Positions 899-38,062 of a stretch of 64,000 bases of DNA are shown here, one piece after another. Every line of letters starts with the position of its first letter. The stretch's first letter is position 1. A program made the translations under genes and the position numbers. The notes beneath the pieces were generated by a model. It was not told where the DNA came from. It ran no database searches and saw only the letters and a list, made by a program, of their open reading frames with translations. The DNA is from Candidatus Omnitrophota bacterium (GTDB lineage Bacteria > Omnitrophota > Gorgyraeia > Zapsychrales > JANLHA01), in contig JAKLFA010000003.1 of NCBI GenBank assembly GCA_022711395.1, forward strand, positions 34,509-98,508, read 5' to 3'.

Positions 899-2164
899 TC
901 AGCCCAATCCGTAACGCAAGGTCAAAAAGACCATGACCAAAGTCAGCACAATGACCACCGCCACAGTCAAGACCGCTATGATATTAAAGGCCCGGCTGTT
1001 GACAAATTCACCCATCAGATCCCGGTCATTGATCAGGATCAGCATGTAGATCAAGATAAACGGCAGAAGGACCCCGTTTCCAACCTGCGAAAAATACATG
1101 ATCCCCAGCAAAGGAAAGTTCGGGACCAAGACCGATACCGCGCCGATCACGATCATCGCGGTATAAAGCCCAAAGAATCCCGGCGCCTCCTCAAAGCGCT
1201 TATCCACCCCTGCCTCCCATCCCATCCCTTCGCAGATCGAATAGGCTGTCGAAAGCGGAAGGACCGCCGCCGCAAAGATCGAAGCGATGAAAAGCCCAAA
1301 AGCAAAAAGCCATGACGCATAATTGCCCGCCAATGGCTGCAAGGCCAACGCGGCATCCTTGGCATCTTCGATATTGATCCCGGCCTTGAACATGGTCGCC
1401 GCGCAGGCCACCACGATAAAGAACGCCACCGCCGGCGCCAGAATACACCCTCCCACCACGTCCAAACGGACATGTTTATAATCCTCAGGCGTGATGCCTT
1501 TCTCCACGATCGAAGACTGCAGATAGAACTGCATCCACGGCGCAATCGTCGTACCGATGATGCCCACCAGCATGATCGTGTATTTCAGGTCAAAATGAAA
1601 TTCAGGAAGGAATGTTTCCCGAGCCACCTCACTCCAATCCGGTTTCGCGATAAACCCCGAGATAATATAAGCGATATAAAAAAAACACGCGAACAAAAAG
1701 ATCTTTTCCACGGACTTATAGGTCCCCCGCACGACCAGCATCCAGACAAAAAGCGCCGCCAGCGGCACCGAAATGAACTTGCTGACATGGAAGATCTCGA
1801 GGCTCGCTGCGACACCTGCGAATTCCGCCATGACGTTGGTGATGTTCACGCAAAACAGAACGAGCATCAAATAGAACGTGACCTTGACCCCAAAATTTTC
1901 TCTGATCAGATCGGCAAGCCCCTTACCGGTGGCGATCGCCATACGGGCGCACATCTCCTGGACAATGATCAATGCCAGCGTGATCGGGATCAAAGACCAT
2001 AAAAGCGTGTAGCCGAAATGAGCGCCGGCCAATGAATACGTCGCGATACCGCCCGCGTCATTATCCACGTTCGCGGTGATGATCCCCGGCCCCATGACCG
2101 CCAGAAAGATCCAGATATTCTTGAACCAAGGATGTTCTTTGAAAAATGTGATGATCTTTTTCAT
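899..2164 (-). CDS. NRAMP/SLC11-family divalent cation transporter, probably an NRMT-like variant.
   Basis: A 421-aa polytopic membrane protein. The TM1 motif reads GPGIITANVDNDAGGIATYSLAGAHFGY, i.e. DAGG in place of the canonical DPGN. The TM6 region reads IAPWMQFYLQ, i.e. Ala in place of the metal-binding Met of the MPH motif. Confidence 0.8.
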   Translation of the reverse strand: MKKIITFFKEHPWFKNIWIFLAVMGPGIITANVDNDAGGIATYSLAGAHFGYTLLWSLIPITLALIIVQEMCARMAIATGKGLADLIRENFGVKVTFYLMLVLFCVNITNVMAEFAGVAASLEIFHVSKFISVPLAALFVWMLVVRGTYKSVEKIFLFACFFYIAYIISGFIAKPDWSEVARETFLPEFHFDLKYTIMLVGIIGTTIAPWMQFYLQSSIVEKGITPEDYKHVRLDVVGGCILAPAVAFFIVVACAATMFKAGINIEDAKDAALALQPLAGNYASWLFAFGLFIASIFAAAVLPLSTAYSICEGMGWEAGVDKRFEEAPGFFGLYTAMIVIGAVSVLVPNFPLLGIMYFSQVGNGVLLPFILIYMLILINDRDLMGEFVNSRAFNIIAVLTVAVVIVLTLVMVFLTLRYGLG

Positions 2165-2171
2165 AATACTT

Positions 2172-3461
2172 TCAAACGAGTTTTTCCTTATACTTACTCC
2201 ACGCCAGCGCGATAAGCTCCTCCATCACGTCATCGGTCGTGATGACACCCTGCAACACCTCATGCGCGTCAACGACCGGGATCGATAAAAACTTGTATTT
2301 TTCCAGAAGAAGCGCGACCTCTTCCATCCCATCATCGGTCCGCACAAAAACATTTTTTGGAAAACAGACCTCCAGGATCGGCCGTTGCGGATCCTCATTG
2401 ATAAAACGCCTCAACGAGGTCGAACCCACGAGCCGGTGTTCGTCATCCACCACATAAAGCGTGTAAATGTTCCCGGGTGAATTCACATGGTCCTTGATCA
2501 TGGCCATGGCATCCGCCACGGTGGCGTCTCTGTTCAAATACAGATATTCCGTTGTCATCAACCCACCGGCGGAATCCTTAGCGAATCCCAAAAGCTTGCG
2601 CAGCTCTTTAGCCGTTTCATTCTCCATGCGGCGGGTCAGTTGCAGGATCTTTTCCTTCGAAAGCGTGGAAAGAACGTCCGTTGCCTCGTCAGCCGGAATA
2701 TTCTCAAGAAGATCGGCTGCTTCCATATCGCTCATCTGCTCAATCAAGTCCTGTTTTTCCTGCGTGGCCAGGTCCGTGAAGACCCTGCGCTGCAGAGGGA
2801 CTTCCAAAGATTTGAACAGCGACAGCCGTTCATAAATATCCAATCCTTCCATGATCTCAGCCAGGTCAGCCGGCAGGATCTGGGAAAGTTTTTTGCGGGC
2901 AATATCCAGCCTTAAAACGTTCTTTTGCCTCCCGAACGTCAGGATCTGCGTGTTCTTCCATGAAATAAAATCCTCCCGCGTCAAATACTGGGCCTTTGGC
3001 GCGAAAGACCTCACGACTGCGTCCACAAAAAGCGTCCACTCCAAACGCCGCACGATGCCGCGCAAGCCAACGTCCACATGAGCCAAATAAAGCCGGTTAT
3101 CAACACGCAACAGATGAATATCATTGACCCGGACGACCTTATGATTATCCGTGTCAACAACCTGTTGGTCTAAGACATCCACGCACAAGGTGAAGTCATT
3201 CTTCCACCATTTGTTCTGGAACTGAATCTCCTCGGCAAGAACGTTCAAAATGATCCTGTCATTCAACTGGGCGACATGATCAAACGGAACATGGGCATAC
3301 TTGTGTTTAAACAATCCCTTCTCAATGACCAGACCCGAGGCGCGCGGATAGATTTCAGTATTGATCCGCATGGAAATATCGCAGAGCTTCCCCACGACCT
3401 TGCCGTCACGGTCAATGATCTTACTTCCCAGGATTTCCGAAAGGTAGACAAATAATTTCAT
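2172..3461 (-). CDS. Cytosolic protein with a PRC-barrel-like N-terminus, an MgtE-N domain and a CBS pair, i.e. the Mg-sensing module of MgtE without the pore.
   Basis: ADLLENIPADEATDVLSTLSKEKILQLTRRMENETAKELRKLL reads as an MgtE N domain. It is followed by two CBS motifs (GGLMTTEYLYLNRDATVADAMAMI..., ...FLSIPVVDAHEVLQGVITTDDVMEEL). There is no transmembrane segment. Confidence 0.7.
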   Translation of the reverse strand: MKLFVYLSEILGSKIIDRDGKVVGKLCDISMRINTEIYPRASGLVIEKGLFKHKYAHVPFDHVAQLNDRIILNVLAEEIQFQNKWWKNDFTLCVDVLDQQVVDTDNHKVVRVNDIHLLRVDNRLYLAHVDVGLRGIVRRLEWTLFVDAVVRSFAPKAQYLTREDFISWKNTQILTFGRQKNVLRLDIARKKLSQILPADLAEIMEGLDIYERLSLFKSLEVPLQRRVFTDLATQEKQDLIEQMSDMEAADLLENIPADEATDVLSTLSKEKILQLTRRMENETAKELRKLLGFAKDSAGGLMTTEYLYLNRDATVADAMAMIKDHVNSPGNIYTLYVVDDEHRLVGSTSLRRFINEDPQRPILEVCFPKNVFVRTDDGMEEVALLLEKYKFLSIPVVDAHEVLQGVITTDDVMEELIALAWSKYKEKLV

Positions 3462-3479
3462 AAATAGACGACCCAGCCC

Positions 3480-4142
3480 TTATCGTGAGGTTGTCACGCC
3501 GCGTCTTTGACACAGATCCGCGACCACGCAGCGCGAACACAACGGAGAAATAGGTCTACAGACATTCTGCCCCCAGATCACAAGAATCGTATTATATTCA
3601 ATCCAGTATTGTTTAGGAAGCTTTTTTCTTAAAGCCCACTCTGTCTCTTCCGGCGAACCGGTCTTGACATAACCGAACCGGTTGGAGATCCGGTGCACAT
3701 GCGTATCCACGCAGATCCCCGGTTTGCCAAAACCTTCGGTCACGACCAGATTGGCGGTCTTGCGGCCCACGCCGTGCAAAGTCAACAGTTCATCGATAGT
3801 GTCCGGGACCTTTCCTTCAAAACGCCCGATCAGATCGCGACAGATGCTCTGAATGGTCCTGGCCTTGGTCCGATAAAACCCTACGGGATAGATCGCCTTC
3901 TCTATATCACGGACCTCAAGCTTTAACATCTCCCTGGGTGATTCCGCCAAGGAAAACAAACGCTCACTGGCCGGCAACGTTGTCTCATCTTTCGTCCGCA
4001 AACTTAAAATACATGAGATCAAAACCAGAAACGGGCTCTTCCAGCGCTTTCCGACCAAAGTCACTGAGGGATCCGGCCATTGCTTGATCCCAACCCGCAA
4101 CCGCTTCACGACCAGGTCGATATTGGAATTGTTCACCGCCAT
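3480..4142 (-). CDS. nth: Endonuclease III (DNA glycosylase / AP lyase)
   Basis: HhH-GPD motif LTLHGVGRKTANLVV, catalytic VDTHVHR, and a C-terminal 4Fe-4S cluster CRPISPLCSRCVVADLC. Confidence 0.85.
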   Translation of the reverse strand: MAVNNSNIDLVVKRLRVGIKQWPDPSVTLVGKRWKSPFLVLISCILSLRTKDETTLPASERLFSLAESPREMLKLEVRDIEKAIYPVGFYRTKARTIQSICRDLIGRFEGKVPDTIDELLTLHGVGRKTANLVVTEGFGKPGICVDTHVHRISNRFGYVKTGSPEETEWALRKKLPKQYWIEYNTILVIWGQNVCRPISPLCSRCVVADLCQRRGVTTSR

Positions 4143-7101: not shown

Positions 7102-7518
7102 CTATTCCCCGATGATCTTGACCAGGACCCGCTTTCTGCGGCGGCCGTCAAATTCCCCGTAAAAGATCTGTTCCCAGGGACCGAAATCAAACTGTCCATC
7201 GGTGACCGCCACCACGACCTCCCGGCCCATGACCTGCCGTTTCATGTGCCCGTCGGCGTTATCCTCGCCGACATTATGCCGATAGCCGGAAACCGGCTCA
7301 TGAGGGGCAAGCTTTTCCAGCCAGTCATCAAAATCCTTTAATAGCCCGCTTTCATTGTCGTTAATAAAAACGCTCGCCGTGATATGCATCGCATTGACCA
7401 GGCACAACCCCTCTTTCACCCCGCTCTCCTTCAAACATTGTTCGACATCAGGCGTGATATTGATATAATCCCGGCGATGGGGTGTGTTAAACCACAGCTC
7501 TTTCCTGTAGCTTTTCAT
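7102..7518 (-). CDS. YjbQ / UPF0047-family protein (secondary thiamine-phosphate synthase enzyme family), copy 1.
   Basis: From the internal Met: [25 protein letters not shown]...[12 protein letters not shown]...DNADGHMK...[33 protein letters not shown] ribosome-binding site precedes the ATG at 7518. Confidence 0.8.
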
Positions 7519-7580
7519 GTTCGACCTCCTTCCGTGATCCAAAACAACGACAATGGAACACGCACCTGACATGTCCTGTT

Positions 7581-10421
7581 CTAAAACACGCTGTTGATCC
7601 CAAACCACACATGCGGATCTTCCTCAGAGTCATTCACCGCTTCCGCCACATCGACCCGGACCACCGCTTTTTCCAGAAATCCCAACAAATCCACATGGAC
7701 GCGGATGCCAAGTCCGACGTCCTTTTTAAGCTCTGAATCCGTAAACGAGCTGAACCACGCCTGACCCGCCTCGACAAAGGCCGCCCCGTCGATTTGACGC
7801 AACCCGAAAATCCTGTCAAAAACATACCAATCGATGTTCCTAACCAACGGGACGCGGTATTCCGCGACACCTAAAACGGCGTTAGCGCCGCGGACAGTCT
7901 TACGGCCATAACCGCGCAAACCATCGATCCCGCCAAGCTGAAAAAGGTCCTTGTCATCCGGATAACCCAGGCCGGCCTTAGCCCGCAAGGCCAGCTTTGT
8001 GTCCCCAACGACCGGAGCATAATAATGAACGTCTGCCCCACCGCGGTAAAAATACGATCCGCCATGCGCGAAATGCCCGGCCTGTTCGGCGAAACTGTTG
8101 ACCCGAAAGCCGCCTTTGGGATCAGGATACGGGCCAGAACGGTTCACGTGGTGCGAAACCCCGATGATCGATTCGCGCCGTCGTTTATATTCGATATTCC
8201 GAATATCCTCCGCGCCGGCCAGCCCTTCATCAAAATCCCCCGGCCGCTGATTGTGAATGAAATACAAACTCACATGGTCCTGGACGTCCATCATCCCGTA
8301 TTCCACCGGCCACAAATTACGCCTCATATAGATCTTCGTGCTGAACAGATCTTCCGGCCCGCCACTGGCGTCTTTCACATTGCGGACCTCCGCTCCCGCA
8401 TCCGTCGGAGAAGCAAAAACATTTTTCAATTGATAACCCGCGCGCGATGTCCACAGTTCATTTCCAAAATCATAATCGCTGCCCGTGTAAGCGACCGCTT
8501 TATAAGGCTTCTGAACACTGGCTTTTAGTCCGATCCCCTCATAGATCTCCGGCCCGACCACAACATTATACGAATCCTCCGGCAAGAAAAGAGGATTGTC
8601 CCAAAGGCCGAAATACAACGGCACCGGCTTAACACGTATCGCCCTGGGCCATTGATTATTGACCCTGTCCCTATCAAAAAATTTCTGCTCCGGGTCGATC
8701 GCGATCCGTTCCAACGGTTTTCCAAAATCAACGGCTTCCCGGGCGCGGCTTTGCCAGACACGCTTCTCATCCGTCCCGTCTCGGTATTCAACCGTCATCT
8801 CGACCGCATCCTGGATCTTCCCTGAGTTTTTCAAGACCGCCCGGCTGCCTCTGACGGCGTAAACCCCCGGATCAAACCCTTCAGCGGAAAACACCCAGTC
8901 CTGAAAAAACGCGGTGAGGTCTTTGCCCGACTCTTCTTCGCACATCCTTTTAAGACTTTCGATCGTCCAATTCCCGAAACGATGTTCCTCAACGACACGC
9001 GCCAGCACCCGGTCAAAGGCCTCTGCGCCGACCTGGCTTTCCAATGTTTCAAAGGCCCTGACGCCTTTTCCATAAACAAGCGCGAAGATCAGGCTCGGTT
9101 CAGAAAACCCATCCAGCGAACCGGCCAACGGCCCGTCGTAACCGGCATAGACCCCTGATTTATACCGGTAATCCCGCAATCGCCGGAACGAAGGGCTGGG
9201 AAAGATCCATTCATAATCTTTAAACCATTTCGGAAACTTGACAATGCCCGTGTCACGGCCGTAACGCTCTTCGATATACCTTAAGGTCAAAAAAGAATTC
9301 AGCCCCTCTTCCAGCCACATCTCGCGCTGTTCCTGCACGCCGACTATATTGTAGATCCACTGATGCCCGGTCTCATGAACGATCAACCATTCAAAATACT
9401 TGTCCAATAACCCCGGCAACTTAAAGGCCCGCGTATCAATGAAGATCATGTTCGGCATCTGCTCACCTCCGTAGCCCAGATGGACCGGCGCGACAGAGAA
9501 CTCGTCATACGGGTATCGCGCACGGAACATCCGCTCATAAAACTCCATCGCAGACTGCACATGTCGCAAGGCATCCTCCGCCCGTTTCAGATCTCCGTCA
9601 AGATAGAACACCCGGATGACCGTCTCATGATGCCTGCCCGTGATTTGTTTATACTCCGGGCTCATGGCAAATGAAAATGAACGCACCGGCAGAGACGCCT
9701 CAAGGACCATGGTCTTTTTACCGGCATCCGTCGTTTCTGACCTGAACGTTCCTGAATGGATCACGGTTTGACCTTGATCAACTTTTAATTCCACCCTGTA
9801 AGTCGACGCTTCTGAAAAGAACGGTCGGTGGAACGGATAAAAAAGCGACCGGTCCCACCCTTCGGCGGTCTGAACGGCCAGGATCGGATACCAATACGCC
9901 GCCTTCATGATCCCATCATTCCAGCCCAGCCGTCCGTAGGAACGTGCGAACTTAAATGAAAAATCCATCTCCAGGTCCATCTTCTGGCCGGGATCCAGGG
10001 GCCTGCTCAACATAACGCGCAGCAGTGTCCGGTCCTTGCCCTCGATCGAAAAAACAAGTTCCGTCCCGTCCGCGGCCTGAACGTTATGGACAGAAAAATG
10101 ATTGGACTGGAACCCTTGCGGGAACGGATCGACCTTGAAATAACCGGCATAACGCAAAAGGAGGGATTTTTCCTGCGGCGTATAATCCCTGTTGGGATAA
10201 ATATGGAAGATCGCCTCATTGATCGGCCGATCCTGACGGTTCGTGAACGAAACCCGCTGACGGGCGGTCAACATTCTTTCAGAATCATCGACGGATGCGT
10301 AAATCTGGTAATGATCCGGATTTTGAGCACGGGCACAAACGGGGCAAAAAACAAAGACGCCTCCTAAAATAAAGGCGCAGCATATTATTCTTTTGGTTCG
10401 GAATAAATTAAGAATGTTCAT
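7581..10421 (-). CDS. Fusion protein: signal peptide, then an M1-family gluzincin aminopeptidase-like domain, then a C-terminal Omp85 (bacterial surface antigen D15) beta-barrel.
   Basis: Signal peptide [33 protein letters not shown]. Zinc motif HETGHQW followed 18 residues later by WLEEG (HEXXH-X18-E). The C-terminal roughly 300 aa is a beta-barrel region (…[31 protein letters not shown]…FVEAGQAW…GLGIRV…) ending in …WFGINSVF with a terminal Phe. The start was chosen at the Met that begins the signal peptide. Confidence 0.65.
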
Positions 10422-10806
10422 GAGATACGGATTCTTCCGGGCGATTCTCGACTTTTGATAAGAACTTCTGAAAACCGGGGTCAGCCAACAGGTGTGCCAG
10501 GTCAGGATCGCTCCGCATAAATTGAAAATCATGATACCCGCACTCAACGGCAAGCTGCATCGCTTCCAAAGCCAGGTCCAGCTTCCGTAAAAGAGAATAA
10601 CTGCACGCCAGATTATACAAAGCGTACGGATCGTTCGGCCTCATCGACACGATCTGCTTATCGATCCGCAACCCGTCCTCAAAACGCCCGGCGCGCGTGT
10701 AAAGGTCCCCCAGAACCGAAAGTGTTTCAAAAAACTGCGGGCTGCGTTTAAGGACTCCCTCATAAAAAGGGATCTCAAAATCGAAATCTATTTTCTTCTC
10801 CGCCAT
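10408..10806 (-). CDS. TPR-repeat protein
   Basis: 132 aa with TPR-like helical repeats (YALYNLACSYSLLRKLDLALEAMQLAVECGY...). It overlaps the start of the downstream fusion gene by 14 nt, suggesting translational coupling. Confidence 0.55.
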   Translation of the reverse strand: MAEKKIDFDFEIPFYEGVLKRSPQFFETLSVLGDLYTRAGRFEDGLRIDKQIVSMRPNDPYALYNLACSYSLLRKLDLALEAMQLAVECGYHDFQFMRSDPDLAHLLADPGFQKFLSKVENRPEESVSHEHS

Positions 10807-12623: not shown

Positions 12624-13652
12624 TTATGGAATGGCCGGCTGAGAACCTTGCGCGCCCTTCATCAGCTCATCGATGCGGGTCCGCAATTCCTGATTTTCAT
12701 TATCTAGCCGCATGATCTCATCCATCAGCTGGCGCTTCTTTTGGACCACCGCGGAAGATTCCTCAACCGATGACTTCACGGCCTTGAGCTGTTGCTCCAA
12801 AGATTGGATCTCCTTTTCCAGCACCTTCTTTTGATCCAGAAGGTCCCGCGGGATCTCTTCAGCCGTTAAAGCAAGTTTCTGATTTTCCTTATCCAGGACC
12901 TCATTTTTCTTGTCCTGTTCAGCTTTTTGCTGCTGAAGGGCAAAAAGCTCAGCTTCCAACTCTTTATTTTTCACCGCAGCGGATTCCAACTCTTCCGGAA
13001 GACCCTGGTATTCTTTCTTTTTCTGCCGGATCATGGCATCCAAGCCCTCTTCCTTCTGTTGATACTCCTTCAATTCCTGCTTCAGTCGCTCGATCTCTTC
13101 ATCTTCGCCCTTTTCAAGTTCCTGACGGGAGATCTCCTGAAGTTTAAGCTCGAGCGTCAATTCACGCTTCTTAACCTGAAGTTCGGACAATTGGGTCTGC
13201 CAAAGATCGTTCTTCTTCTCTTCCTCTTCCAGCTTCTTCATGAATTGTAATTTATTCGCTTCCAGATCGGCGATCTCTTTCTTGGTCTGCTCCATCTTAT
13301 CTTTGATCATCTGCGCCGTGGCCAACTGATCCTGCCGATACCGCTCAAGGTTCTTGGTCTCACTTCTCTGGGATTCAAGATCATTTTTCAACTGAAGGAC
13401 GGTCGTCTGAAGGGCAGACATCTTTTCCTTCAAAAATTCATATTCGCTGTTCAGGCGTTCATTCTCATCAAGCAGGCTCTTTGTTTCCTGTTTTGCGCTT
13501 TCGATCGTTTTTTGCCATTCTTCATAACTTAAGGATTTGGCTTTGGAAGGCGTAATATCGTGGGCCGTTGTTTGCGCCGAGACGGCGACCGGGCAGCAGG
13601 CCAGAGCGGCAATTATGAAAACACTCATGGATGTTCTGTTCATGGATTTCAT
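12624..13652 (-). CDS. Secreted/periplasmic long coiled-coil protein
   Basis: Signal peptide MKSMNRTSMSVFIIAALACCPVAVSAQ, then about 300 aa of E/K/Q/L-rich heptad sequence. Low-complexity antisense ORFs on the opposite strand are artefacts of this region. Confidence 0.55.
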   Translation of the reverse strand: MKSMNRTSMSVFIIAALACCPVAVSAQTTAHDITPSKAKSLSYEEWQKTIESAKQETKSLLDENERLNSEYEFLKEKMSALQTTVLQLKNDLESQRSETKNLERYRQDQLATAQMIKDKMEQTKKEIADLEANKLQFMKKLEEEEKKNDLWQTQLSELQVKKRELTLELKLQEISRQELEKGEDEEIERLKQELKEYQQKEEGLDAMIRQKKKEYQGLPEELESAAVKNKELEAELFALQQQKAEQDKKNEVLDKENQKLALTAEEIPRDLLDQKKVLEKEIQSLEQQLKAVKSSVEESSAVVQKKRQLMDEIMRLDNENQELRTRIDELMKGAQGSQPAIP

Positions 13653-13702
13653 TATAAGCACATCTGATTTTCCTGGCAATTGAAACTTGAAATTTCTGCC
13701 TC

Positions 13703-20452: not shown

Positions 20453-23400
20453 CTATTCTGTCGCGACGTTCCAAGTCCCATCCATCTGGACTGCATATTT
20501 AAAAGTGATGGTCTTGGGATCCGAACCCGAGATGCCGGTGACCTCCATCTTGCCGTAATAGCCGTCATCGGTCCTAAACACGAACACCTTCCCAACTGAT
20601 ACTGAAAACCCCATCCCGTCCCAAGTAAAATTATATGTTGAGCTGTCCGGCGCTTCCGAAATCGCGTCAAAACTGTCCGATGCGGCTTTGAACCTGGCTT
20701 CCCGGATCGGCATCAGCCTTACATCGTCCGGATTGAATTGGATATCGTTCGGGAACGGGCAGTCTCCCAGGCTGACCCCATCGGAGAAATCGAAAAAGAA
20801 ATTATGATGAGTATAGGACGTGATCGATCCCGTTTTGACCGGCAGACCGGCCGTCTGCGGTGTCAGCTCCTGTGCCGGTTCCAGTTCCGATCCATCTCCA
20901 GACTCCAAAAGCCCGGGATCCCGTTTCTCATTGGCCTCGCGGATCTTTTCGACCATTTTAGATGACAATCCGCTGGCCTGCGCGACCTCCGGTGACAGCG
21001 ACGCAAACAACAGGTCCCCTCTTAAATTGTGCACAAGCATCTGCGCATCACCCAGGGTGAAGATCAGGGTGGTCTTGCCCGCCGCCTTCTGCAGCTCCCC
21101 GCTTGAACGCGCTGTCTGGCTCTTTTCCCATTTGACCTCAGCAATGAACTTGTCTTTCTGCTTTTCAATGCGGTTGATCCTCACCAGGATCTTCGTCCCT
21201 TGAAAGATCTCAAAATCGAACTGCGCGCCCGAAACAAGCGCTGATTTTCCTCCAAGGAACTGTTCTGATATCCCGTCACTGAACACGGAAAGATTGGCAG
21301 ACTCATAAGCATCCGCCAGACGTTGGATCGCCTCCACAACAAGCTGCTGATAGGACACATCCTTATACGTCAAAGATGACAGTTCAGGAAACGGGTTCAG
21401 CTCATATTTTTCTTCTCTGTCCGTGATAACGCGAAGACGAAGCAGATAGCCGGCATCGGGCAGCGGAGCGAACACGTATTTGATCTTCTGTGCCTTTGCG
21501 AGCGGCTTCCAAGTCCCCCCGCCATCAAGGGAGATCTGAACGCCCGCCACGCCTGTCATATGATTAAACGTTCCGGTGATCTCGATCTGACCGTTCTTAA
21601 GATCTTCTTTGGTAAACAAAACATCTCCCTTGAGGGACATGGGCGTAAAAGCGTTCAGCTTGACATCGCCCACCGAATACCCCTGCCGTCGCGCCTGTTC
21701 TTCCTGAACCTGTTCCTGCTCTTCCTGCGCCTTCTTTTTATCCGCTTGGGCCCTGGCCGCGGCTTCCGCCGCCGCCTGGTCCTGAAGTTCTTTATTTTTT
21801 AGAGCCATCAGCGCCTCGTTCCTGGCAAGAGCCAACCTCGCGACCTCGACGTACAGTCGCCCGAGATCATGCTGCAAGCGCGCATCGTTCAAGGCGGAAC
21901 GGACATTGTCATTCACCGAATAATCCGGTGCCGGCAATCCCCGCCCGGTTGTCTTTTTCACATACTCTTCCGCTGTGGCCATCCCATATTCCTTCGCCCT
22001 CTGTTCAAGCGCTGCGCGGTCACGGTCAGACATCGCGCGCAGCAGGCCCGGAACAAGATCAGCGACCTGCGCCATTTTCTGCTCGTAATCCGAAAACGGT
22101 TCCTGAAGAGAGGACAGGATCTTCAATGCCCCCTCCAGGTCGCTCTTATAAAGAATATGTCCCGACAAAGGAGAAACAAAGTTCGCTTCCCGCGCCGGCG
22201 TGACGTGCGACATCGACAGCATCGCTTGCATCGCCTTGTCATACAACGGAGCATATTGCTTGATAAATTCGTAACCCTTATAATTCGGCCAATCCCCGGC
22301 AATGTTTGAAGCATACGCGCTCAATTCACTGGCTGTCATCGCATGCGGGAACGGCTCGTTCTTCAAGGCCATCCCCTCAATGCGCTCTTTCGGTGCGGCG
22401 ATCTGATAACCGTTTGCCGCAGGTTCAAAATGGCCTTTTTTGACCTGCGCGTTGATGAACGCCTGAACCTCGCGCGATTTCTGCTGCAGCCAATACGCGT
22501 CCCGCTCGCGGTTCTCTCCATCGGTGGCGGATAATTGCATCAGCTCCCTTACCGAAGCCATCATGGCCTCACAGATCGCCGGCGTCGAGCTGGCCACACT
22601 GTCGATAGCGGCCATCCGCCCCCGCGGATCGAAACTGCCATCGATGAACGCCTGGATCTCCTTAATATCGTTCGGGCTCAAATCCGGGATTTTTTGCCAC
22701 TGCTCTACGGCCCTAAGCCATATTTTTTTCATGCGTTCGGCGTCAACCGCATACGCGCTCACCGCCGATGGGGCATACACCCCTGCCAGGATCTCCCCCG
22801 CCTTCATCTGAATAATATTAGGAAGCGACGGAAGCGTGTCGCCGTCGTTAGGGCCTAATTGCGCTACGGCGGTATGAACATTGTCCTTCAGGGCCTGCAA
22901 AGCGACATTGATGGAACTGATCACATGGCAGGGGTCCGCCAGCGGCAGCAACTGTCCCAACCTTTTCGGATCGCGCGCGGCGGTGACAGGAAGGTCGCGT
23001 TCGGCCGCGGCCATTGCGTCGTTATAAAGATTATATTGCCGGGCGCGGGCGCCGGCCAATCCGCCATAGGCAGATATCACTTCTTCGAGAGTCGCCATCG
23101 CTGACTGGTACTCAGCGTTCACTGCGGCAATAATGTTGTTCCTGACAATGTCCGCTTTCCCGTAAGCGACATTCAACCCATCCCTTGCGGCATCTGAAGC
23201 TCCGCCTCCAATAGGCTTCGGAGCCTTAAAGATCTTCTCTTCTGCCTGTTCTTGATAAAAACGGATCTCCACCAAAACGGCGTTGGACCACATCCGTCTT
23301 AGATCATTGGCCTGGCCAACAGCCCCCATATCAACAAGCTCCACACATTTTTTAACAAATGCTTTCGGATCGGCTGACGGCACGCCGCCGCCCATACGCT

Positions 23401-24790
23401 CCAGGACCCGACCCCAATCAAAGGGCTTAAGATATTGCTTAAACGCTGAGTAATACTTTTGCGCATACGAAATGACTTCCGGACTCGGCGGCGGAGTGTT
23501 GCCCCCTGCCGGTTGACTATCAACGACCTGCTCCGCAGCAGAGGCCGCCTGTGAAGCGTTCCGTCCAATAAAATCTTTTATCGTTCCTAGAACGGCGAGC
23601 CAGCCGTTCCGCGCGCCGCTCAATTGTTTCGCCAAAGCCTCTTCGCGCAAGATCGCAGCCCGGCCGCTCGCCTGCAACAGGTCAAGCGACCATGTGTTCG
23701 CCATGTCAAAAAGGGCCTGCGCCTCCGGCATATTTGCCGCGGTCAGGCCGTTGAAACGCTTTTGAAACTCATTTAAAGCGGCAGCGCTTTCTTTCACCAT
23801 GAGCCGCATCTCGGGAAGCTTCTTGATATATTCCCGGATGGACAAAAATTCATGGAACGCCTGTTCAAGGTCTTCATGATAAAATCTGCCGACACGGTTC
23901 GCGAAAAGCTGAAATTCCGCCATCATTTGACGCACGCGCGTCTGCCCCCAGGCGACCCGGGCTTGTTTATTGACATCCTTGATGAGCTGCGAGATCCACG
24001 TTCGGCCTTTATTTTTCCAGGTTGTCGCGAGGGCTTCGATCTCGGCGCTGCGGGCCGTGTCCTCACCGGAACCGACCGCCATCCAGCTCGCCGCGTATTC
24101 TGACCAGCTTTGTTCCGGCCATTCATCGCCAAGGACCTTCTCGACGTAGGACCTAAGCATCTGCCGGGCACTGTCGTTGGTCATCACATACTTATCAAAA
24201 AAATAATCCGCGCTGGCGGCGGTCTCCGGTATCAAGGCCGGTGAGTCGGCATTCGGATTAATGACACCCATCAAGCGCCGGTCATTGGACATCATGCCGT
24301 AGAGCGTTTCGATCTCCAGCGCGGCCTGGCTCGCCGCGACTTCTTTATGGGACTGATAGGTGAGTTTGGCCATCTGCCAGGTCACAGACACGAGCGGATG
24401 GTCGAGAACATCCGTGATCTGATCGACCGCTGTAATGAGCGCGTCATCATAACGTCCTTCGATGATCGCAAGGGCCGCTGTTTCAATGGCCTGCATCCGC
24501 TCGACGAATTTCTTGATCTTGTCCTTCGCCTTGACGATCTCGGCCTCATCGTTCTGGAAGATGATCCGTTCATAACCGCCGATCGAGTCCCACAGCCAGT
24601 CCGACCACTTGTCCTGCATGACGGACTTCAGCCCTTCTCCCACGCTCTTCTGTTCCGCCATGGCCTTGGCGACATCTAACCCAAGCTTGATCGGTTTTGG
24701 GGTATTATCCTCATCTTCGGCAAAAACGCTATGACAGAAAAAAACCGACAGAACCATTGCGGTGATAAAAGCTGTTTTCATTCTGTTCAT
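20453..24790 (-). CDS. Giant secreted protein B (1445 aa), family unrecognised, paralog of the gene at 24937..29352.
   Basis: Signal peptide MNRMKTAFITAMVLSVFFCHSVFA. The N-terminal roughly 250 aa are close to the paralog: RYDDALITAVDQITDVLDHPLVSVTWQMAKLTYQSHK... versus KYDDAAFAAIDQVVSTVNHPLVSLTWEMAKLTYESHK.... It is mostly helical, has a central Q/E/A/K coiled-coil region, and carries one Asp-box-like motif SLDGGGTWKP. An AAGAGGGG ribosome-binding site precedes the start. Confidence 0.7.
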   Translation of the reverse strand: MNRMKTAFITAMVLSVFFCHSVFAEDEDNTPKPIKLGLDVAKAMAEQKSVGEGLKSVMQDKWSDWLWDSIGGYERIIFQNDEAEIVKAKDKIKKFVERMQAIETAALAIIEGRYDDALITAVDQITDVLDHPLVSVTWQMAKLTYQSHKEVAASQAALEIETLYGMMSNDRRLMGVINPNADSPALIPETAASADYFFDKYVMTNDSARQMLRSYVEKVLGDEWPEQSWSEYAASWMAVGSGEDTARSAEIEALATTWKNKGRTWISQLIKDVNKQARVAWGQTRVRQMMAEFQLFANRVGRFYHEDLEQAFHEFLSIREYIKKLPEMRLMVKESAAALNEFQKRFNGLTAANMPEAQALFDMANTWSLDLLQASGRAAILREEALAKQLSGARNGWLAVLGTIKDFIGRNASQAASAAEQVVDSQPAGGNTPPPSPEVISYAQKYYSAFKQYLKPFDWGRVLERMGGGVPSADPKAFVKKCVELVDMGAVGQANDLRRMWSNAVLVEIRFYQEQAEEKIFKAPKPIGGGASDAARDGLNVAYGKADIVRNNIIAAVNAEYQSAMATLEEVISAYGGLAGARARQYNLYNDAMAAAERDLPVTAARDPKRLGQLLPLADPCHVISSINVALQALKDNVHTAVAQLGPNDGDTLPSLPNIIQMKAGEILAGVYAPSAVSAYAVDAERMKKIWLRAVEQWQKIPDLSPNDIKEIQAFIDGSFDPRGRMAAIDSVASSTPAICEAMMASVRELMQLSATDGENRERDAYWLQQKSREVQAFINAQVKKGHFEPAANGYQIAAPKERIEGMALKNEPFPHAMTASELSAYASNIAGDWPNYKGYEFIKQYAPLYDKAMQAMLSMSHVTPAREANFVSPLSGHILYKSDLEGALKILSSLQEPFSDYEQKMAQVADLVPGLLRAMSDRDRAALEQRAKEYGMATAEEYVKKTTGRGLPAPDYSVNDNVRSALNDARLQHDLGRLYVEVARLALARNEALMALKNKELQDQAAAEAAARAQADKKKAQEEQEQVQEEQARRQGYSVGDVKLNAFTPMSLKGDVLFTKEDLKNGQIEITGTFNHMTGVAGVQISLDGGGTWKPLAKAQKIKYVFAPLPDAGYLLRLRVITDREEKYELNPFPELSSLTYKDVSYQQLVVEAIQRLADAYESANLSVFSDGISEQFLGGKSALVSGAQFDFEIFQGTKILVRINRIEKQKDKFIAEVKWEKSQTARSSGELQKAAGKTTLIFTLGDAQMLVHNLRGDLLFASLSPEVAQASGLSSKMVEKIREANEKRDPGLLESGDGSELEPAQELTPQTAGLPVKTGSITSYTHHNFFFDFSDGVSLGDCPFPNDIQFNPDDVRLMPIREARFKAASDSFDAISEAPDSSTYNFTWDGMGFSVSVGKVFVFRTDDGYYGKMEVTGISGSDPKTITFKYAVQMDGTWNVATE

Positions 24791-24936: not shown

Positions 24937-27900
24937 TTAGAAAAGCGAGAACGTCCCATCTGAAGTATCGCTGATGTTCGGATCCTCGACCGCCGTGATC
25001 CTGACCTGACAATTAGGAACAGGCGGAAGGAACCCATCGATATCCCATGAATACGTCCCTGCCGCCGCCGGTGTGGAAGCCACCAAAGGAACCCACCATC
25101 CTTCCCAATACTCAATTGAAACAGCCACAACGCCGGAACTGGTCCAGGTAATGTTCTGCGTTGATCCAAGGGCCCAGCTCTCTCCGCCATTGGGGCTGGT
25201 CACCGTGATCGAGGCCTCCTCATCATCCGATGATGATGTCACACCGCCTGAATCTTCCGTTGTGCCCGCACCGGGCTGCGTGGGATTGCGGTCATCGCGG
25301 GCCGTGCGGATCTCATCCACAACGCTTGAATTCTTTCCTGAAGCCTGCGCGATCTCCGGTGAAAGGGTGGCATAGATCAGATCTCCCCGCAGATTCTTGA
25401 TCCGCATCTTCCCCTCTTCCAGGACAAAGGTGAACGTTGTCTTTCCGCTGGTCCTTTGTTCCTCGCCGGTATTGCGGGGGGTCTGGGTCTTGTCCCATTT
25501 GGTCTCAACGACGAACATGTCCCCGCGCTGCTGGATCCGGTTAATATAGATCGTCAGACGGATGTTGATGAACATATCAAAATCAAACCGCACGCCTTCT
25601 TCAAGGGCGGACTTATTGCCAAGATAGTCCGATGAGATGTGATCACTGAAAACGGTCATGTTGGCCTGCTCATAAGCATCCGCGATCCGTTTGACCGTCT
25701 CCGGAACAAGCTGCTCAAAATCCACATCCCGATAGGTGATGCTGTCTACCATGCTGAAGATCCTGACCTGCGGCTCACGCTGATCCGTGGTCTTGATTCG
25801 CAAAATAAAATCATACTCCCGGTCAGGAAGCGGGCTGAAACGGACGCTGATATCCTGAGAAAGCCCGATATCCTGCCAGGTCCTTCCCCCGTCATCCGAC
25901 AAAAGGATCGTCTGCGCCTTATCGATCGTGAACAGCCGCGCTTCAATGATCATCTGGCCGGTGATCAGGTCCGCCTTTGACAGGATCACGTCACCCCGCA
26001 CATCCGCCATCGAACGGGAATTAAGTCTCGGATTCTCGATCGAATAACCGTAATAGGACGCCATCCCGAACGGGCCCGACTCATCGATCCTCCGTTCGCC
26101 TTCAGCGATCGCTTGGCGCATGGCCTCTTCATCCCGGCGCCGCATCTCCTCACGAGTCTGCTGCTCTAAGATACTTTGCTGCTCCATCACCGCTGCCGTA
26201 TGATGCCCTTCCACGAGCGCCTTGACCTTATCCCGCAATTCAAGATACTTTTTCCCCAGCTCATGGGTCCCCAGGCCGTCGCCGGCGAGGTCTATATCTC
26301 TCATGGTATAACTCGGCTGAGATAAAGACTTGCGCAAGACCTTCTTTTGGTACTCTTCCAATGTCATCCCATAAAGCTTGGCCTGTCTCTCATAATATGC
26401 CTTTTCATTGTCCGTTGCCACGTCCAATACATACGGCAAATATTTGGCAACCGCGGCTATTTGCTCTGTATAATCGTTCCCTGTCGGAGACATCTTCTTG
26501 ATCAGGTCTTCAGCCTTTTTCAGGTCGCTCGCATAAACGACTTCCGTGCGCACGATCAAATTTTCTTCCTTCGCGCCGCTGATCCCGGGAAGCGAAAGGA
26601 CCTTCAAAAGCGCCTCGTGATGGCCAGGCAAATATTTCTGCATGATCGCGAAAGCCGGAGAAGCCTTATAATCATCCATAATGGCCTTCTCGAGCGCATC
26701 AAGCTCCGCCTGTAACAGGTAATGCGGATACGGCTCATACGTCTTGACCATTCCGTTCTCGACCGGCCCGGGCAGGGCGACCTGCAGGGAACCCTGATCG
26801 TTCCTCAGCCGGCCTTTGTCAAACTGCTCTCTAAAAAAGCGGTCGATGACCCTGGCCTTCTCGATCAGCCAATACGAATCTTTGTCGCGGTTATCCCGGT
26901 CGGTTTCGGCAAGCTGCAGCTTTTTGTCCAGGATCGCCGTGATCCGGGCAGGGGCTGAGCCAGCGGCCACAACAGCCTCATTGATCGCTTTGATCTCTTT
27001 TTGAAGATCAAAGTCCGGCTTAACAAGGACCTGGATCTCCGCAATATCGGCATCATCGATCGGAGCCTTCGTGTTCCACATCTCAGAAGCCTGCTTCCAG
27101 GTGGAGAATAGTTTCTCATAGCTCCCTTTTTCCTCCATGACCCATGACGGAGAGGACCCTTGTGATGCCAGCTGTGTCGCAAGGCTGATGAGCGACGCGC
27201 CCGCGTAAACAGGATGGGGATTGTCTTCCCGTAACGGCGTGATATACGTGTGCGCTTCCTCGCCCATGCGCTTTAAATCGTCCTGCAGGCTGGAAACCAG
27301 CTGATCAACGTCCATCGGGATCGTCTTCCTGATATAATCCATCATTTCCTTGAGCTTGTCATATTGCTGCTTCCGGGCGTCCGCTAAGCTCTGAAACGCG
27401 TTCACCACTTCAGCAGCGGCGGAAATATTTTCAGAATAGGTCTTCTCCGCCATGACGGTCAAACGGCCCGCCGTTTCCTTAGCTTTAGCTGTTGCGGCAA
27501 CCCATCCATTCTGCACTGCAGCGCTTTCCTTTTGCAGAGCCCAGAGCCTGTTCTTAACCGGAGGGATCTGCGCGTCAAATGCCTGCATGGTCGCCGTGTT
27601 CGAATTTATGATCCGCTGACATTGCTCCTCACTGCCGTTTTCCGGGCAATTCGGAAGGCTCGCCACTAAAGCTGCCCGGGCCTTTGAAATAGTTTCAAGC
27701 TCTGCATAAATACCATTTAAAGCAGTGTTCATCGCCGCCGTCTTCTGCGCAAATGATTCTGTTTCCGGCACTTTGTCAAGGACGGGGGCCATGGCCGCCT
27801 TCCAATCATCAAAATGCTTCTTCGCCGCCCCCTGCCAGACGGAGTATATGGCCAAAGCCTCCGCAATATTCCCCATGTTGCATTCTTTTAAAAGAATTTC

Positions 27901-29352
27901 TTTTGTGCTTTCCACATCTCCAGAAAGAGAATACGTTGCCCCGGACTTGACCGTAACAGGATCCACATCAAAGATCCATTCCATTTCCTTCAAAGAAAAC
28001 TGCTTCGAAATATCCTCAAAGTATTGTTTCGCGTAAGGGATCATCATCTGATAAAAATCAGAATCTCCCTGCTGCGCGATCTCTGCAGAGATCTCATCTT
28101 TCGCGTTATTGACGACCTGGCCCTCCTGAGCCTCCATAAACTGTCCAAGCTGGTCCAAAAGCGTCTTCCACTGGGATTGTTCCTGCTTAAAACTGCCGGC
28201 CAGCCCTTTCTCATTGACCATCTCCGCCCTGGAAGAATACGACAGGCACTTATAATACCAGCCATCGGCGACATTCCTTAATCCGCCGACCGCCTTAAGG
28301 TCTTTCGGCTTTAACGCCGCGACCTTTGAAGAGACGTTCTTCCGTTCAGCCTGGCTTTGGGCCAGATAGCTCGGATACTGCGGGATCTCCTGCTGGATCT
28401 TCTTAATGTCCAGGAACTCTTTGAGCATCTGGGCGAAATCACCGTTATAGAAATGGCCCACACGCTCCGCGAACTTCTGGAACTCCGCCAACTGCTGACG
28501 GAGCCTCGTCTCAGCCCATGACTGCCTGGCCATCTTATTGACTTCTTTGATCACTTTCATGATCCAGGTTCGGCCTTTTTGGCGCCATTCATCGCCCATC
28601 ATCTCGATTTCAGCGCTCCGGGCGGTATCAACCCCCGAACCGATCGCTGCAAAGCTGCTGATCCATTCTCCCCAGCTTTGCTCTGGCCATTCTTCTCCCA
28701 ACACCGTGGTAACATACGCCTGCAACGCGGCCCGCGCGCTGTCATTGGTCATCACGTATTTGTTGAAAAAATAATCCGCGCTGGCGGATGTTTCCGGGAT
28801 GGTCGGAGGCGTGTCCGATTTCGGGTCGACCGTCCCCATCAAACGGCGGTCATTGTTCATCATGCCATAAAGCACTTCCACCTTCAGGGCGGCCCCGGAT
28901 TCCTGGACCATCTTATGCGACTCATAGGTCAGTTTTGCCATTTCCCACGTCAACGATACCAGCGGATGGTTCACGGTCGAAACAACCTGGTCAATAGCCG
29001 CGAAGGCCGCGTCATCATATTTTCCCTCGGTCATCGCGATGCAGAACTTTTCGATCTGACCGACAATATTAACGATATTATTGATCTTGTCTTTGACCAC
29101 CGGAAGGTCGGCTTCGCTGTTCTGGAACATGAATTTCTCCATCCCGCCGATCGCTTCCCACATCCAGTTGGTATATTCATCTTTGGCCGCGGTCTTGAGG
29201 CCCTTGACCACGTCTTTCTCAGAGGCCATGGCTGTCGCCGCACTGAGCCCCAGTGAGATCAGTTTTGGAGGGTCATCATCAGCGAACGCGCAACGGTTAA
29301 AGGCCACTGTCAAGCACAGCACAGCCAGCAAAAAACTTTTTCGAAATGACAT
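24937..29352 (-). CDS. Giant secreted protein A (1471 aa), family unrecognised, paralog of the gene at 20453..24790.
   Basis: Signal peptide MSFRKSFLLAVLCLTVAFNRCAFA. Asp-box-like motif LSDDGGRTWQD. Its unique C-terminal roughly 90 aa (GGESWALGSTQNITWTSSGVVAVSIEYWEGWWVPLVASTPAAAGTYSWDIDGFLPPVPNCQVRITAVEDPNISDTSDGTFSLF) resemble a Kre9/KNH-like GPI-anchored-family Ig-like domain. A GGAG ribosome-binding site sits 10 nt after the lipoprotein gene's stop. Confidence 0.7.
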   Translation of the reverse strand: MSFRKSFLLAVLCLTVAFNRCAFADDDPPKLISLGLSAATAMASEKDVVKGLKTAAKDEYTNWMWEAIGGMEKFMFQNSEADLPVVKDKINNIVNIVGQIEKFCIAMTEGKYDDAAFAAIDQVVSTVNHPLVSLTWEMAKLTYESHKMVQESGAALKVEVLYGMMNNDRRLMGTVDPKSDTPPTIPETSASADYFFNKYVMTNDSARAALQAYVTTVLGEEWPEQSWGEWISSFAAIGSGVDTARSAEIEMMGDEWRQKGRTWIMKVIKEVNKMARQSWAETRLRQQLAEFQKFAERVGHFYNGDFAQMLKEFLDIKKIQQEIPQYPSYLAQSQAERKNVSSKVAALKPKDLKAVGGLRNVADGWYYKCLSYSSRAEMVNEKGLAGSFKQEQSQWKTLLDQLGQFMEAQEGQVVNNAKDEISAEIAQQGDSDFYQMMIPYAKQYFEDISKQFSLKEMEWIFDVDPVTVKSGATYSLSGDVESTKEILLKECNMGNIAEALAIYSVWQGAAKKHFDDWKAAMAPVLDKVPETESFAQKTAAMNTALNGIYAELETISKARAALVASLPNCPENGSEEQCQRIINSNTATMQAFDAQIPPVKNRLWALQKESAAVQNGWVAATAKAKETAGRLTVMAEKTYSENISAAAEVVNAFQSLADARKQQYDKLKEMMDYIRKTIPMDVDQLVSSLQDDLKRMGEEAHTYITPLREDNPHPVYAGASLISLATQLASQGSSPSWVMEEKGSYEKLFSTWKQASEMWNTKAPIDDADIAEIQVLVKPDFDLQKEIKAINEAVVAAGSAPARITAILDKKLQLAETDRDNRDKDSYWLIEKARVIDRFFREQFDKGRLRNDQGSLQVALPGPVENGMVKTYEPYPHYLLQAELDALEKAIMDDYKASPAFAIMQKYLPGHHEALLKVLSLPGISGAKEENLIVRTEVVYASDLKKAEDLIKKMSPTGNDYTEQIAAVAKYLPYVLDVATDNEKAYYERQAKLYGMTLEEYQKKVLRKSLSQPSYTMRDIDLAGDGLGTHELGKKYLELRDKVKALVEGHHTAAVMEQQSILEQQTREEMRRRDEEAMRQAIAEGERRIDESGPFGMASYYGYSIENPRLNSRSMADVRGDVILSKADLITGQMIIEARLFTIDKAQTILLSDDGGRTWQDIGLSQDISVRFSPLPDREYDFILRIKTTDQREPQVRIFSMVDSITYRDVDFEQLVPETVKRIADAYEQANMTVFSDHISSDYLGNKSALEEGVRFDFDMFINIRLTIYINRIQQRGDMFVVETKWDKTQTPRNTGEEQRTSGKTTFTFVLEEGKMRIKNLRGDLIYATLSPEIAQASGKNSSVVDEIRTARDDRNPTQPGAGTTEDSGGVTSSSDDEEASITVTSPNGGESWALGSTQNITWTSSGVVAVSIEYWEGWWVPLVASTPAAAGTYSWDIDGFLPPVPNCQVRITAVEDPNISDTSDGTFSLF

Positions 29353-34049: not shown

Positions 34050-34119
34050 GACACACGACACAAGACACATGACACAAGAAACTACAATTCCCTGTGTCAT
34101 GTGTCCTGTGTCTTTGTGC
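34050..34119. repeat. Heptamer-array inverted element C. GACACAC-GACACAA-GACACAT-GACACAA, 14-nt spacer, CTGTGTC-ATGTGTC-CTGTGTC-TTTGTGC. The right arm overlaps the last 7 codons and the stop of atpI.
   Basis: Read directly. The atpI C-terminal TKTQDT* is encoded by the array. Confidence 0.7.
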
Positions 34120-35869: not shown

Positions 35870-35891
35870 ACGTTTTCACTTCATTTAAAAA

Positions 35892-35952
35892 GACACTGGG
35901 GCACTCTGACACTCAGGCGCTGGTGTCTCAGTGCCATAGTGCCTTAGCGCCC
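35892..35952. repeat. Octamer-array inverted element D. GACACTGG-GGCACTCT-GACACTCA, loop GGCGC, then TGGTGTCT-CAGTGCCA-TAGTGCCT-TAGCGCCC. The right arm overlaps the atpD stop codon.
   Basis: Read directly. Base pairing was checked by hand: about 20 bp of imperfect stem. Confidence 0.7.
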
Positions 35953-36585: not shown

Positions 36586-36603
36586 TTTGAACTTTCTTAT
36601 AAA

Positions 36604-36732: not shown

Positions 36733-36740
36733 TATCAGTA

Positions 36741-38033: not shown

Positions 38034-38062
38034 AAACAATCCTTTTAGAAAAATTAATAAAT

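Follow-up and report, generated by a model that had tools for sequence, protein, structure and literature searches.

An M1-family zinc metallopeptidase fused to a predicted Omp85-type outer-membrane barrel in Candidatus Omnitrophota

The fusion gene and its product

The DNA analysed here (in the following, the window) is a stretch of 64,000 nucleotides (nt) from a Candidatus Omnitrophota bacterium (assembly GCA_022711395.1, contig JAKLFA010000003.1, forward-strand positions 34,509 to 98,508). On its minus strand, at window positions 7581-10421, it carries a gene for a protein of 946 amino acids (aa), counted from the Met at 10421, in which a zinc peptidase of family M1 is followed by an Omp85-type beta-barrel. 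The minus-strand frame is open from 10553, the last codon ends at 7584, and the stop codon occupies positions 7581-7583. Both modules score above the Pfam cut-offs and far beyond chance: Peptidase_M1 (PF01433) reaches 66.8 bits (cut-off 27.7) over aa 284-509, and the C-terminal region scores as an Omp85 barrel (PF01103) with 45.9 bits (cut-off 24) over aa 655-907. It genuinely belongs to both Pfam M1 and the Omp85 superfamily. A preliminary description of this DNA, made from its letters, had claimed a single secreted protein of 946 aa combining an M1-type gluzincin with an Omp85/D15 barrel. Apart from the strand, which it did not give, this claim is backed by Pfam, structure prediction, fold search, a profile search against PDB sequences, and family conservation.

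The features of the gene are listed below; conservation counts (n/37) refer to an alignment of 37 members of the fusion family.

7581..10421, minus strand: complete M1 peptidase-Omp85 barrel fusion gene; a single open reading frame (ORF) with both Pfam domains above cut-off
10326..10421, minus strand: predicted signal peptide, aa 1-32, predicted cleavage after A-R-A (mature start QN); sequence and hydropathy
9597..10316, minus strand: M1 domain I, N-terminal beta domain, aa 36-275; AlphaFold 2 (AF2) secondary structure and Foldseek
8892..9590, minus strand: M1 catalytic thermolysin-like domain, aa 278-510; Pfam PF01433 and HMMER alignments to aminopeptidase A and PSA
9450..9470, minus strand: variant exopeptidase motif G318-G-E-Q-M-P-N324 in place of GxMEN; family-invariant GGEQM[S/A/P]N
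9306..9377, minus strand: zinc-binding motif H349-E-T-G-H353...E372; invariant in 37/37
9063..9074, minus strand: catalytic Tyr motif Y450-G-K-G (M1 YxKG); aligned to Y-S-K-G of aminopeptidase A and PSA
8697..8870, minus strand: small beta-sandwich resembling M1 domain III, aa 518-575; six strands and no helices in AF2, not POTRA
8571..8696, minus strand: conserved junction/linker, aa 576-617; mean conservation 0.72
7584..8570, minus strand: 16-strand Omp85-type beta-barrel, aa 618-946, with terminal Phe (beta-signal); AF2, PF01103, PDB profile and Foldseek
7908..7922, minus strand: loop-6 lid-lock motif G834-L-R-G-Y838; aligns to SVRGYD of TamA
7764..7778, minus strand: strand-13 motif F882-V-E-A-G886, of FxDxG type; F and G invariant, middle residue D/E in 37/37

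The AF2 model of the full-length protein is confident (mean predicted local distance difference test, pLDDT, 89.6; predicted template modelling score, pTM, 0.88), and both the peptidase and the barrel proposed in the preliminary description are seen in it, the latter with 16 strands. Along the chain, a signal helix is followed by the beta domain, the catalytic domain, the six-strand sandwich, a linker of 42 residues, and the sixteen strands of the barrel. The N-terminus displays the n-, h- and c-regions of a Sec signal peptide, its best hydrophobic window of 15 residues averaging 2.84 on the Kyte-Doolittle scale. Signal-like N-termini are likewise found in the aligned homologs and in 31 of 34 more distant fused relatives. 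Based on this predicted signal peptide, the protein looks like an exported one.

An architecture of this kind might be an artefact, in which adjacent genes for a peptidase and an Omp85 protein were merged through a sequencing or assembly frameshift, a possibility that had also been raised in the preliminary description. However, the frame is uninterrupted. Among the matches listed there are 120 homologs, all of which carry both domains (length ~920-1090 aa), and this identical layout indicates one gene rather than two joined by a frameshift. The full-length homologs among them share 44-100% identity over 96-100% of the length, with alignments starting at or near the Met at 10421, and at least 200 clusters at 90% identity share the fusion architecture. 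Furthermore, a genome scan covering one genome per GTDB species found a relative encoded in 354 species genomes, which originate from many studies and assemblers, and the motif at the junction of peptidase and barrel is conserved. A merger of two genes is ruled out by the unbroken frame, the 120 listed homologs and the 354 genomes; we assign practically no weight to it.

Peptidase module and barrel

In a Foldseek comparison, the N-terminal part of the protein aligns over ~580 columns to IRAP, ERAP1/2 and tricorn factor F3 (E down to 4.6e-27), and the M1 fold of domains I, II and III is present. The gluzincin motif noted earlier (HETGHQW-X18-WLEEG) is present at H349, E350, H353 and E372 with the canonical HExxH-x18-E spacing; Y450 within Y-G-K-G shares the invariance of these four residues (37/37). 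Judged by HExxH, E and Tyr, the zinc catalytic centre is intact. The helical domain IV of classical M1 enzymes is missing from the AF2 model, in which the sandwich runs straight to the barrel. The protein also misses the NCBIfam equivalogs for PepN and LTA4H (TIGR02412, 42.7 versus 591.2; TIGR02414, 15.1 versus 718.2; TIGR02411, 34.9 versus 761.7). A profile of domain I yields weak alignments to PDB sequences (best E 0.005), which cover just the end of the domain and were too weak for pinpointing the domain-I residue for the substrate N-terminus.

Where classical M1 enzymes have GxMEN, the 37-member alignment displays the family motif GGEQM[S/A/P]N. In a gapless joint alignment of multiple clades, the canonical Glu position of GxMEN is taken by Q321; a gapped HMMER alignment of this region, with a two-residue insertion and P323 at the Glu position, was set aside in its favour. 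One residue before Q321, E320 is nearly invariant (36/37) and might compensate at this position for binding of the substrate N-terminus. The joint alignment reveals a series at this site. Stand-alone relatives and those with divergent barrels read GGMEYP, and intermediate clades GGNE[S/C]S; GGHE[S/T]S, GGVQSS and GGTQNA mark the fringe of the Omnitrophota-type group, and the clade of the window protein has GGEQM[S/P]N. Because of the altered motif, we name the protein an M1-family zinc metallopeptidase. Of the earlier term, M1-type zinc aminopeptidase, the M1 zinc peptidase stands, while the aminopeptidase is not established, given the non-canonical GxMEN in this clade. Since the cap domain is absent and recognition of the N-terminus appears altered, the enzyme probably takes longer or unfolded substrates, and not solely short peptides with free N-termini.

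The same site may suggest a catalytically altered or inactive module, in which the M1 domain would mainly bind peptide or protein in a chaperone- or receptor-like manner. The canonical Glu is replaced by Gln in the clade of the window protein, and in one relative (P0121, with GGVQSS) neither Glu is present. Two distant fused relatives, P0168 (LARQLARAWW) and P0242 (LANEICLQWF), have lost HExxH and kept the barrel fusion, and are possible pseudo-peptidases. However, none of the zinc ligands varies among the window protein and 37/37 close relatives, nor do catalytic Glu350 and Tyr450, which is hard to account for without catalysis. A module devoid of normal catalysis appears very improbable to us.

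The proposed D15/BamA-like barrel with terminal Phe is likewise borne out. Sixteen strands spanning aa 618-942 are predicted both in the full-length model and in a barrel-only model (pLDDT 89.6 and 80.9, respectively), and the last residue is Phe946, with Phe in 37/37 aligned homologs. Within the loop-6 motif, G-L-R-G is invariant (37/37) and is followed by Y in 26 members and by F in 11. In the model it falls in the stretch that joins strands 11 and 12, with the FxDxG-type motif in strand 13, positions that correspond to the standard Omp85 topology with strand 1 starting at the periplasmic face. With the barrel-only model, the top 50 Foldseek matches are all TamA or BamA (E 6.8e-9 to 1.1e-6). 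A barrel profile searched against PDB sequences matched Omp85-superfamily chains only: F. nucleatum BamA (9ccg, 1.1e-9), TamA (5e-5) and, weakly, E. coli BamA and Toc75. In both models strand 16 is short, with 6 residues versus 8-18 in the other strands.

No Pfam POTRA family matches the fusion protein at E<=1, and the segment before the barrel is modelled as an all-beta sandwich with a short linker. POTRA was also missing from 20 more distant proteins, made up of fused relatives and stand-alone forms (scan at E<=0.01-0.1), and thus from every clade scanned. The NCBIfam BamA model TIGR03303 gives 20.3 bits against a cut-off of 297.15, and of the type Vd (PlpD-like) combination of patatin, POTRA and barrel, neither patatin nor POTRA was found in the Pfam scan.

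These features raise the question of a working barrel. It would bind beta-signals in a BamA-like way at the seam of strands 1 and 16, or conduct peptides, and the docked peptidase would process the substrates. BepA is the E. coli periplasmic M48 zinc protease with a TPR domain that acts at BAM; a working barrel would imply a built-in quality-control protease for outer-membrane protein assembly, comparable to BepA with BamA. The invariance of the lid-lock motifs RG[Y/F] and Fx[D/E]xG (37/37), the short strand 16 in both models, as in BamA-type seams, and the nearest relatives by sequence and fold, which are BamA and TamA and not TpsB, are consistent with such a device. So are the protease and envelope-biogenesis neighbours in several lineages (see below), and P0168 and P0242, in which the fusion kept without HExxH hints at a role beyond catalysis. 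On the other hand, the protein is devoid of POTRA, the substrate-handling module of all characterised Omp85 insertases, and M1 active sites normally work on short peptides. Moreover, the lid-lock motifs are of a structural kind and persist in noNterm Omp85 proteins of unknown function as well (PMC11358297), and the loop-6 motif degenerates in the divergent clades described below. We therefore consider a working barrel unlikely, albeit worth keeping in mind, and the quality-control role that it implies equally so.

Distribution and gene neighbourhood

The distribution among related taxa, a matter pointed out in the preliminary description, covers the 354 species genomes, nearly all labelled Omnitrophota, with divergent forms in three more groups. 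The best 80 of the 354 genomes were kept as loci, and their labels are nearly all Candidatus Omnitrophota, or coarse automatic ones ("uncultured Planctomycetales"). Neither a second Omp85 nor a stand-alone copy of the peptidase was found in the window and 80 related loci (~0.8 Mb). When 1.84 billion cluster representatives were searched exhaustively with a profile, 3,259 proteins matched at E<=1e-30, and the top 150 of these were sorted with custom hidden Markov models: 35 have M1 and a recognisable barrel, 75 are M1-only or fragments, 4 are barrel fragments, and 36 have the M1 module and an unrecognised C-terminal region of ~310-435 aa. Many of these 36 tails end in an alternating pattern with terminal Phe, and the five that were scanned (P0161, P0162, P0167, P0170, P0250) yield no Pfam match. 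With hhalign, the unrecognised tails align to the barrel profile from Omnitrophota with 99.1% probability (E 1.3e-18, 313 columns, junction motif included), and they are therefore taken to be divergent Omp85 barrels. As the Pfam Omp85 model misses the barrel in many family members, the architecture is under-counted in domain databases.

Named cluster members extend the fusion to Candidatus Latescibacterota, Gemmatimonadota and Gemmataceae (Planctomycetota); a C-terminal fragment from Latescibacterota is named "BamA/TamA family" by NCBI. The fusion appears to be vertically conserved across Omnitrophota, a phylum that is poorly understood, and present in at least three other phyla. Names in public databases are only automatic, either "M1 family aminopeptidase" or "BamA/TamA family outer membrane protein"; the latter, given by NCBI to some members, seems to overstate the likeness.

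Among the wider relatives are stand-alone forms of ~500 aa, including an M1 family metallopeptidase of the Firmicute Thermotalea metallivorans (P0164 cluster). Nearly all members of the subfamily carry an N-terminal hydrophobic segment, and of the forms of 580-700 aa, 6/13 checked also end in a helix resembling a transmembrane (TM) one. As far as sequence can tell, this M1 subfamily is generally exported and anchored, be it by an N-terminal hydrophobic segment, a C-terminal TM helix, or a barrel, the latter of which looks like the outer-membrane version of the anchor. The statement in the preliminary description that M1 peptidases are normally soluble thus does not apply to this subfamily, whose members are predicted to be exported and usually membrane-anchored.

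The fusion gene is preceded by one further gene of interest:

10408..10806, minus strand: upstream TPR protein, 132 aa, cytoplasmic; TPR_17 and NCBIfam TPR_END_plus, no hydrophobic N-terminus

The TPR stop overlaps the start of the fusion gene by exactly 14 nt (ATGAACATTCTTAA), as had been noticed before. The TPR ORF scores 35.4 bits with Pfam TPR_17 (cut-off 24.4), other TPR models staying below their cut-offs. Of the 72 loci with enough flank, 48 have a TPR homolog on the same strand ahead of the fusion gene, directly adjacent (overlap or short gap) in only ~28 of them; in the remaining ones an M48 and/or a PilZ protein intervenes, and 17 loci show only the PilZ protein within the flank. The TPR homologs have ~100-165 aa and hydrophilic N-termini; they are devoid of a signal peptide, and hence cytoplasmic. 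The translational coupling seen in the window is, on this comparison, presumably real but lineage-specific, and not a feature of the family. Two independent in-frame TPR-M1-Omp85 ORFs with an internal signal segment are known among the relatives (L035:3053-6256 and P0038; 1067 and 1088 aa). They may stem from indels where the gene ends overlap, or they may be real fusions with the TPR domain on the cytoplasmic side. The TPR protein had been proposed as a chaperone or adaptor. A periplasmic adaptor is ruled out, as a signal peptide is missing from the TPR protein of the window and from its homologs, and the TPR and fusion genes are not constant neighbours; a part in targeting or holding on the cytoplasmic side is possible, resting on the coupling and the two in-frame fusions.

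In Omnitrophota, the gene belongs to a co-directional block of a secreted coiled-coil protein, AsnC, an aminotransferase, TPR, (M48, PilZ-TM), M1-Omp85, YjbQ, PfkB, a small TM protein, and Era. The M48 protein is a Ste24-type integral-membrane zinc protease and the PilZ protein a 653-aa PilZ-TM-coiled-coil protein; one or both of them separate the TPR and fusion genes in many other Omnitrophota (L031:2746-3987; L033:897-2012, 2015-3976). In the window neither lies between these two genes, and an M48 homolog is found nowhere in the window. Outside Omnitrophota, the neighbours differ from lineage to lineage but are often linked to the envelope; they include an LpxL-type acyltransferase overlapping the start, TPR together with DUF4292 and an S41/PDZ protease, a nearby S41 protease, a PDZ protein immediately upstream, and another Omp85. 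In one non-Omnitrophota lineage (L085 and L086:1-2130), a non-canonical Omp85 (DUF5686 + Omp85) is located ~3 kb upstream of the M1-barrel gene.

Two neighbours in the window may be noted in their own right. The YjbQ/UPF0047 ORF (7102-7608, minus strand) has its listed GTG start inside the 3' end of the fusion gene. Since the family match begins only at about aa 37-50, the true start is probably a downstream Met, and the apparent overlap of 28 nt is likely unreal. At 12624-13679 (minus strand), a 351-aa signal-peptide protein, highly charged and coiled-coil-like, has no Pfam match, and occupies the same syntenic position in 26 of the 80 related loci.

Elsewhere in the window, Pfam gives no match at E<=1e-5 for a neighbouring pair of very large ORFs (20453-24790 and 24937-29352, minus strand; 1445 and 1471 aa) or for ORFs of 576 and 782 aa (29839-31569 and 48902-51250); giant proteins with poor annotation are a known trait of Omnitrophota (PMC10066038). 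V/A-type ATPase genes are found at 34097-39933 (minus strand), with a weak subunit I-like match and a strong A subunit match, and a 714-aa protein at 51251-53395 (plus strand) displays a beta-roll match (LbR_Ice_bind, 36.1 bits, cut-off 30).

Orientation, possible function and known systems

Between the folded peptidase and strand 1, the linker of 42 residues carries the motif IDPD...NR.NN..PR, which is found again in fused relatives of other phyla and in stand-alone forms of ~615 aa; the junction is also aligned by hhalign. Because the stand-alone forms have it as well, the first half (IDPD...NR.NN) is assigned to the peptidase module, and the idea that the conserved linker acts as a barrel plug is weakened.

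The preliminary description had left open whether the peptidase faces the surface or the periplasm. The evidence favours the periplasm, without proof, and the peptidase most likely faces this compartment, tethered under the outer membrane. This orientation is suggested by strand 1, which starts on the periplasmic side by Omp85 homology; by the linker, which is short and belongs in part to the peptidase module; by the full-length model, which is compact and confident; and by the three-domain module itself, which is globular, ~60 kDa in size, and not a beta-helical passenger. In PlpD, the best-studied enzyme-Omp85 fusion, the enzyme domain was placed in the periplasm by experiment, and export of a folded domain of 31 kDa was considered implausible by the authors (PMC11116518), which argues for the same placement of the larger module here. 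Anchoring of the exported M1 subfamily by various means fits the barrel as a localisation device.

Alternatively, the peptidase may be displayed on the surface, which it would reach by way of its own barrel or next to it, as in type V secretion, and where it would trim environmental or prey peptides for uptake. Ecologically, a peptidase in this place would suit ultra-small and often host-dependent or predatory organisms such as Omnitrophota (PMC10066038); the stand-alone relatives, with the one from Thermotalea metallivorans among them, seem extracytoplasmic; and PlpD was first proposed to secrete its enzyme domain (PMC4104836). However, this secretion model of PlpD has been overturned by experiment (PMC11116518), and a zinc enzyme of three globular domains does not resemble a beta-helical passenger. 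In addition, neither POTRA nor a long helix spanning the lumen is seen in the model, and strand 1 begins on the periplasmic side. Surface display thus seems doubtful to us, and clearly not the first choice.

Based on this dataset, we hypothesize that the signal peptide carries the polypeptide across the inner membrane, and that the C-terminal beta-signal (terminal Phe) directs the 16-strand barrel into the outer membrane. The ~540-aa M1 module of three domains would stay in the periplasm, held at the inner face of the outer membrane by the short conserved linker, and would hydrolyse peptides or unfolded polypeptide segments beside this membrane. It would thus act in envelope housekeeping, and not as a strict classical aminopeptidase. 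A housekeeping role is suggested by the relatives in 354 species genomes and by the place in a conserved block with Era, YjbQ, PfkB, aminotransferase and AsnC, and an envelope role by the envelope and protease neighbours in various lineages (M48, S41/PDZ, PDZ protein, LpxL, DUF4292, other Omp85). That the peptidase faces the periplasm, that it is active, and what it acts on are what we infer here, and we regard this overall picture, a periplasm-facing, outer-membrane-anchored M1 peptidase with an envelope housekeeping role, as somewhat better than an even bet.

Several observations weigh against it. Q321 resembles E271Q of LTA4H, which is named among mutations impairing the activity of that enzyme (PMC3405069), and the activity of the window protein could accordingly be altered or weak. 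When conservation of periplasmic turns and extracellular loops is compared as a proxy for orientation, the skew is only mild and leaves the orientation undecided. Stand-alone relatives that seem extracytoplasmic make a surface role conceivable, and neighbourhoods outside Omnitrophota vary, with no single recurring partner.

A bolder proposal would be a self-contained proteolytic machine of the outer membrane, in which a POTRA-less BamA-like barrel captures unfolded or beta-signal-bearing polypeptides, or conducts peptides, to the docked, cap-less M1 peptidase. We regard this as rather unlikely. If true, Omnitrophota, Planctomycetota, Latescibacterota and Gemmatimonadota would share a protease for quality control or processing that is coupled to Omp85, and Omp85 would gain an eleventh subfamily, in which the scaffold serves a new function. 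Homologs in Gemmataceae and Gemmatimonadota may be experimentally tractable relatives for topology, substrates, and outer-membrane protein turnover.

A literature search for fusions of peptidase M1 with Omp85, or for this protein in work on Omnitrophota, found no description, and the recent Omp85 and Omnitrophota literature that was searched does not mention such a fusion. Comparison with established systems is thus by parts. Classical M1 enzymes (PepN, ERAP1/2, IRAP, APN, tricorn F3, LTA4H) share the fold of domains I-III, HExxH-x18-E, and the Tyr of YxKG, whereas the fusion protein is devoid of domain IV, has GGEQM[S/A/P]N for GxMEN, and would be exported and anchored by a barrel. The two-domain M1 protein of Deinococcus radiodurans (PDB 6iff), reportedly an active aminopeptidase with the canonical motif, likewise has no C-terminal domain and gives a weak match to the domain-I profile (E 0.017). 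It is a soluble protein of 474 aa without a barrel, and a precedent for the missing domain IV (Agrawal et al., 2019, as cited in PMC7575645). With BepA there is a functional analogy only, a zinc protease at an Omp85 machine with a TPR element near, and some Omnitrophota have M48 between the TPR and fusion genes. However, the peptidase family is another one, the M48 neighbour is Ste24-type integral membrane and not BepA-like, and the TPR protein here is cytoplasmic.

BamA and TamA are the best matches of the barrel in sequence and fold and share the L6 RGY and FxDxG motifs and the terminal Phe, but the fusion protein has no POTRA domains and stays below the BamA equivalog cut-off. The 'Metallo' subfamily of Omp85 carries PF00149, which we take to be the calcineurin-like phosphoesterase family and not a peptidase. 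Among the ten Omp85/TpsB subfamilies of Heinz and Lithgow (2014), of which 'Metallo' (PF00149) is one, none has an M1 peptidase, and several recognised subfamilies are also without POTRA (PMC4104836). These non-POTRA subfamilies (noNterm, WD40, 'Metallo') resemble the present one in a barrel with lid-lock motifs, the absence of POTRA, and an unknown function (PMC4104836; PMC11358297).

Omp85 proteins are central to outer-membrane biogenesis, and PlpD has recently made the barrel accepted as a platform for periplasmic enzymes. To the enzymes borne by a reused Omp85 barrel, the widespread and uncharacterised M1-Omp85 family adds a protease, without the POTRA domain often held to define Omp85, in line with the emerging view of scaffold reuse for periplasmic enzymes. 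The closest parallel in layout is PlpD/FplA (patatin-like Omp85, formerly 'type Vd secretion'), where signal peptide, N-terminal enzyme and C-terminal 16-strand Omp85 barrel are likewise combined in one polypeptide, and where the enzyme most likely sits in the periplasm, held beneath the outer membrane (PMC11116518). PlpD differs in being a dimeric patatin phospholipase with one POTRA, while the fusion protein is an M1 zinc peptidase with none. Judged by its sequence, the M1-Omp85 layout would work like PlpD, as an enzyme with a barrel, but outside the PlpD family.

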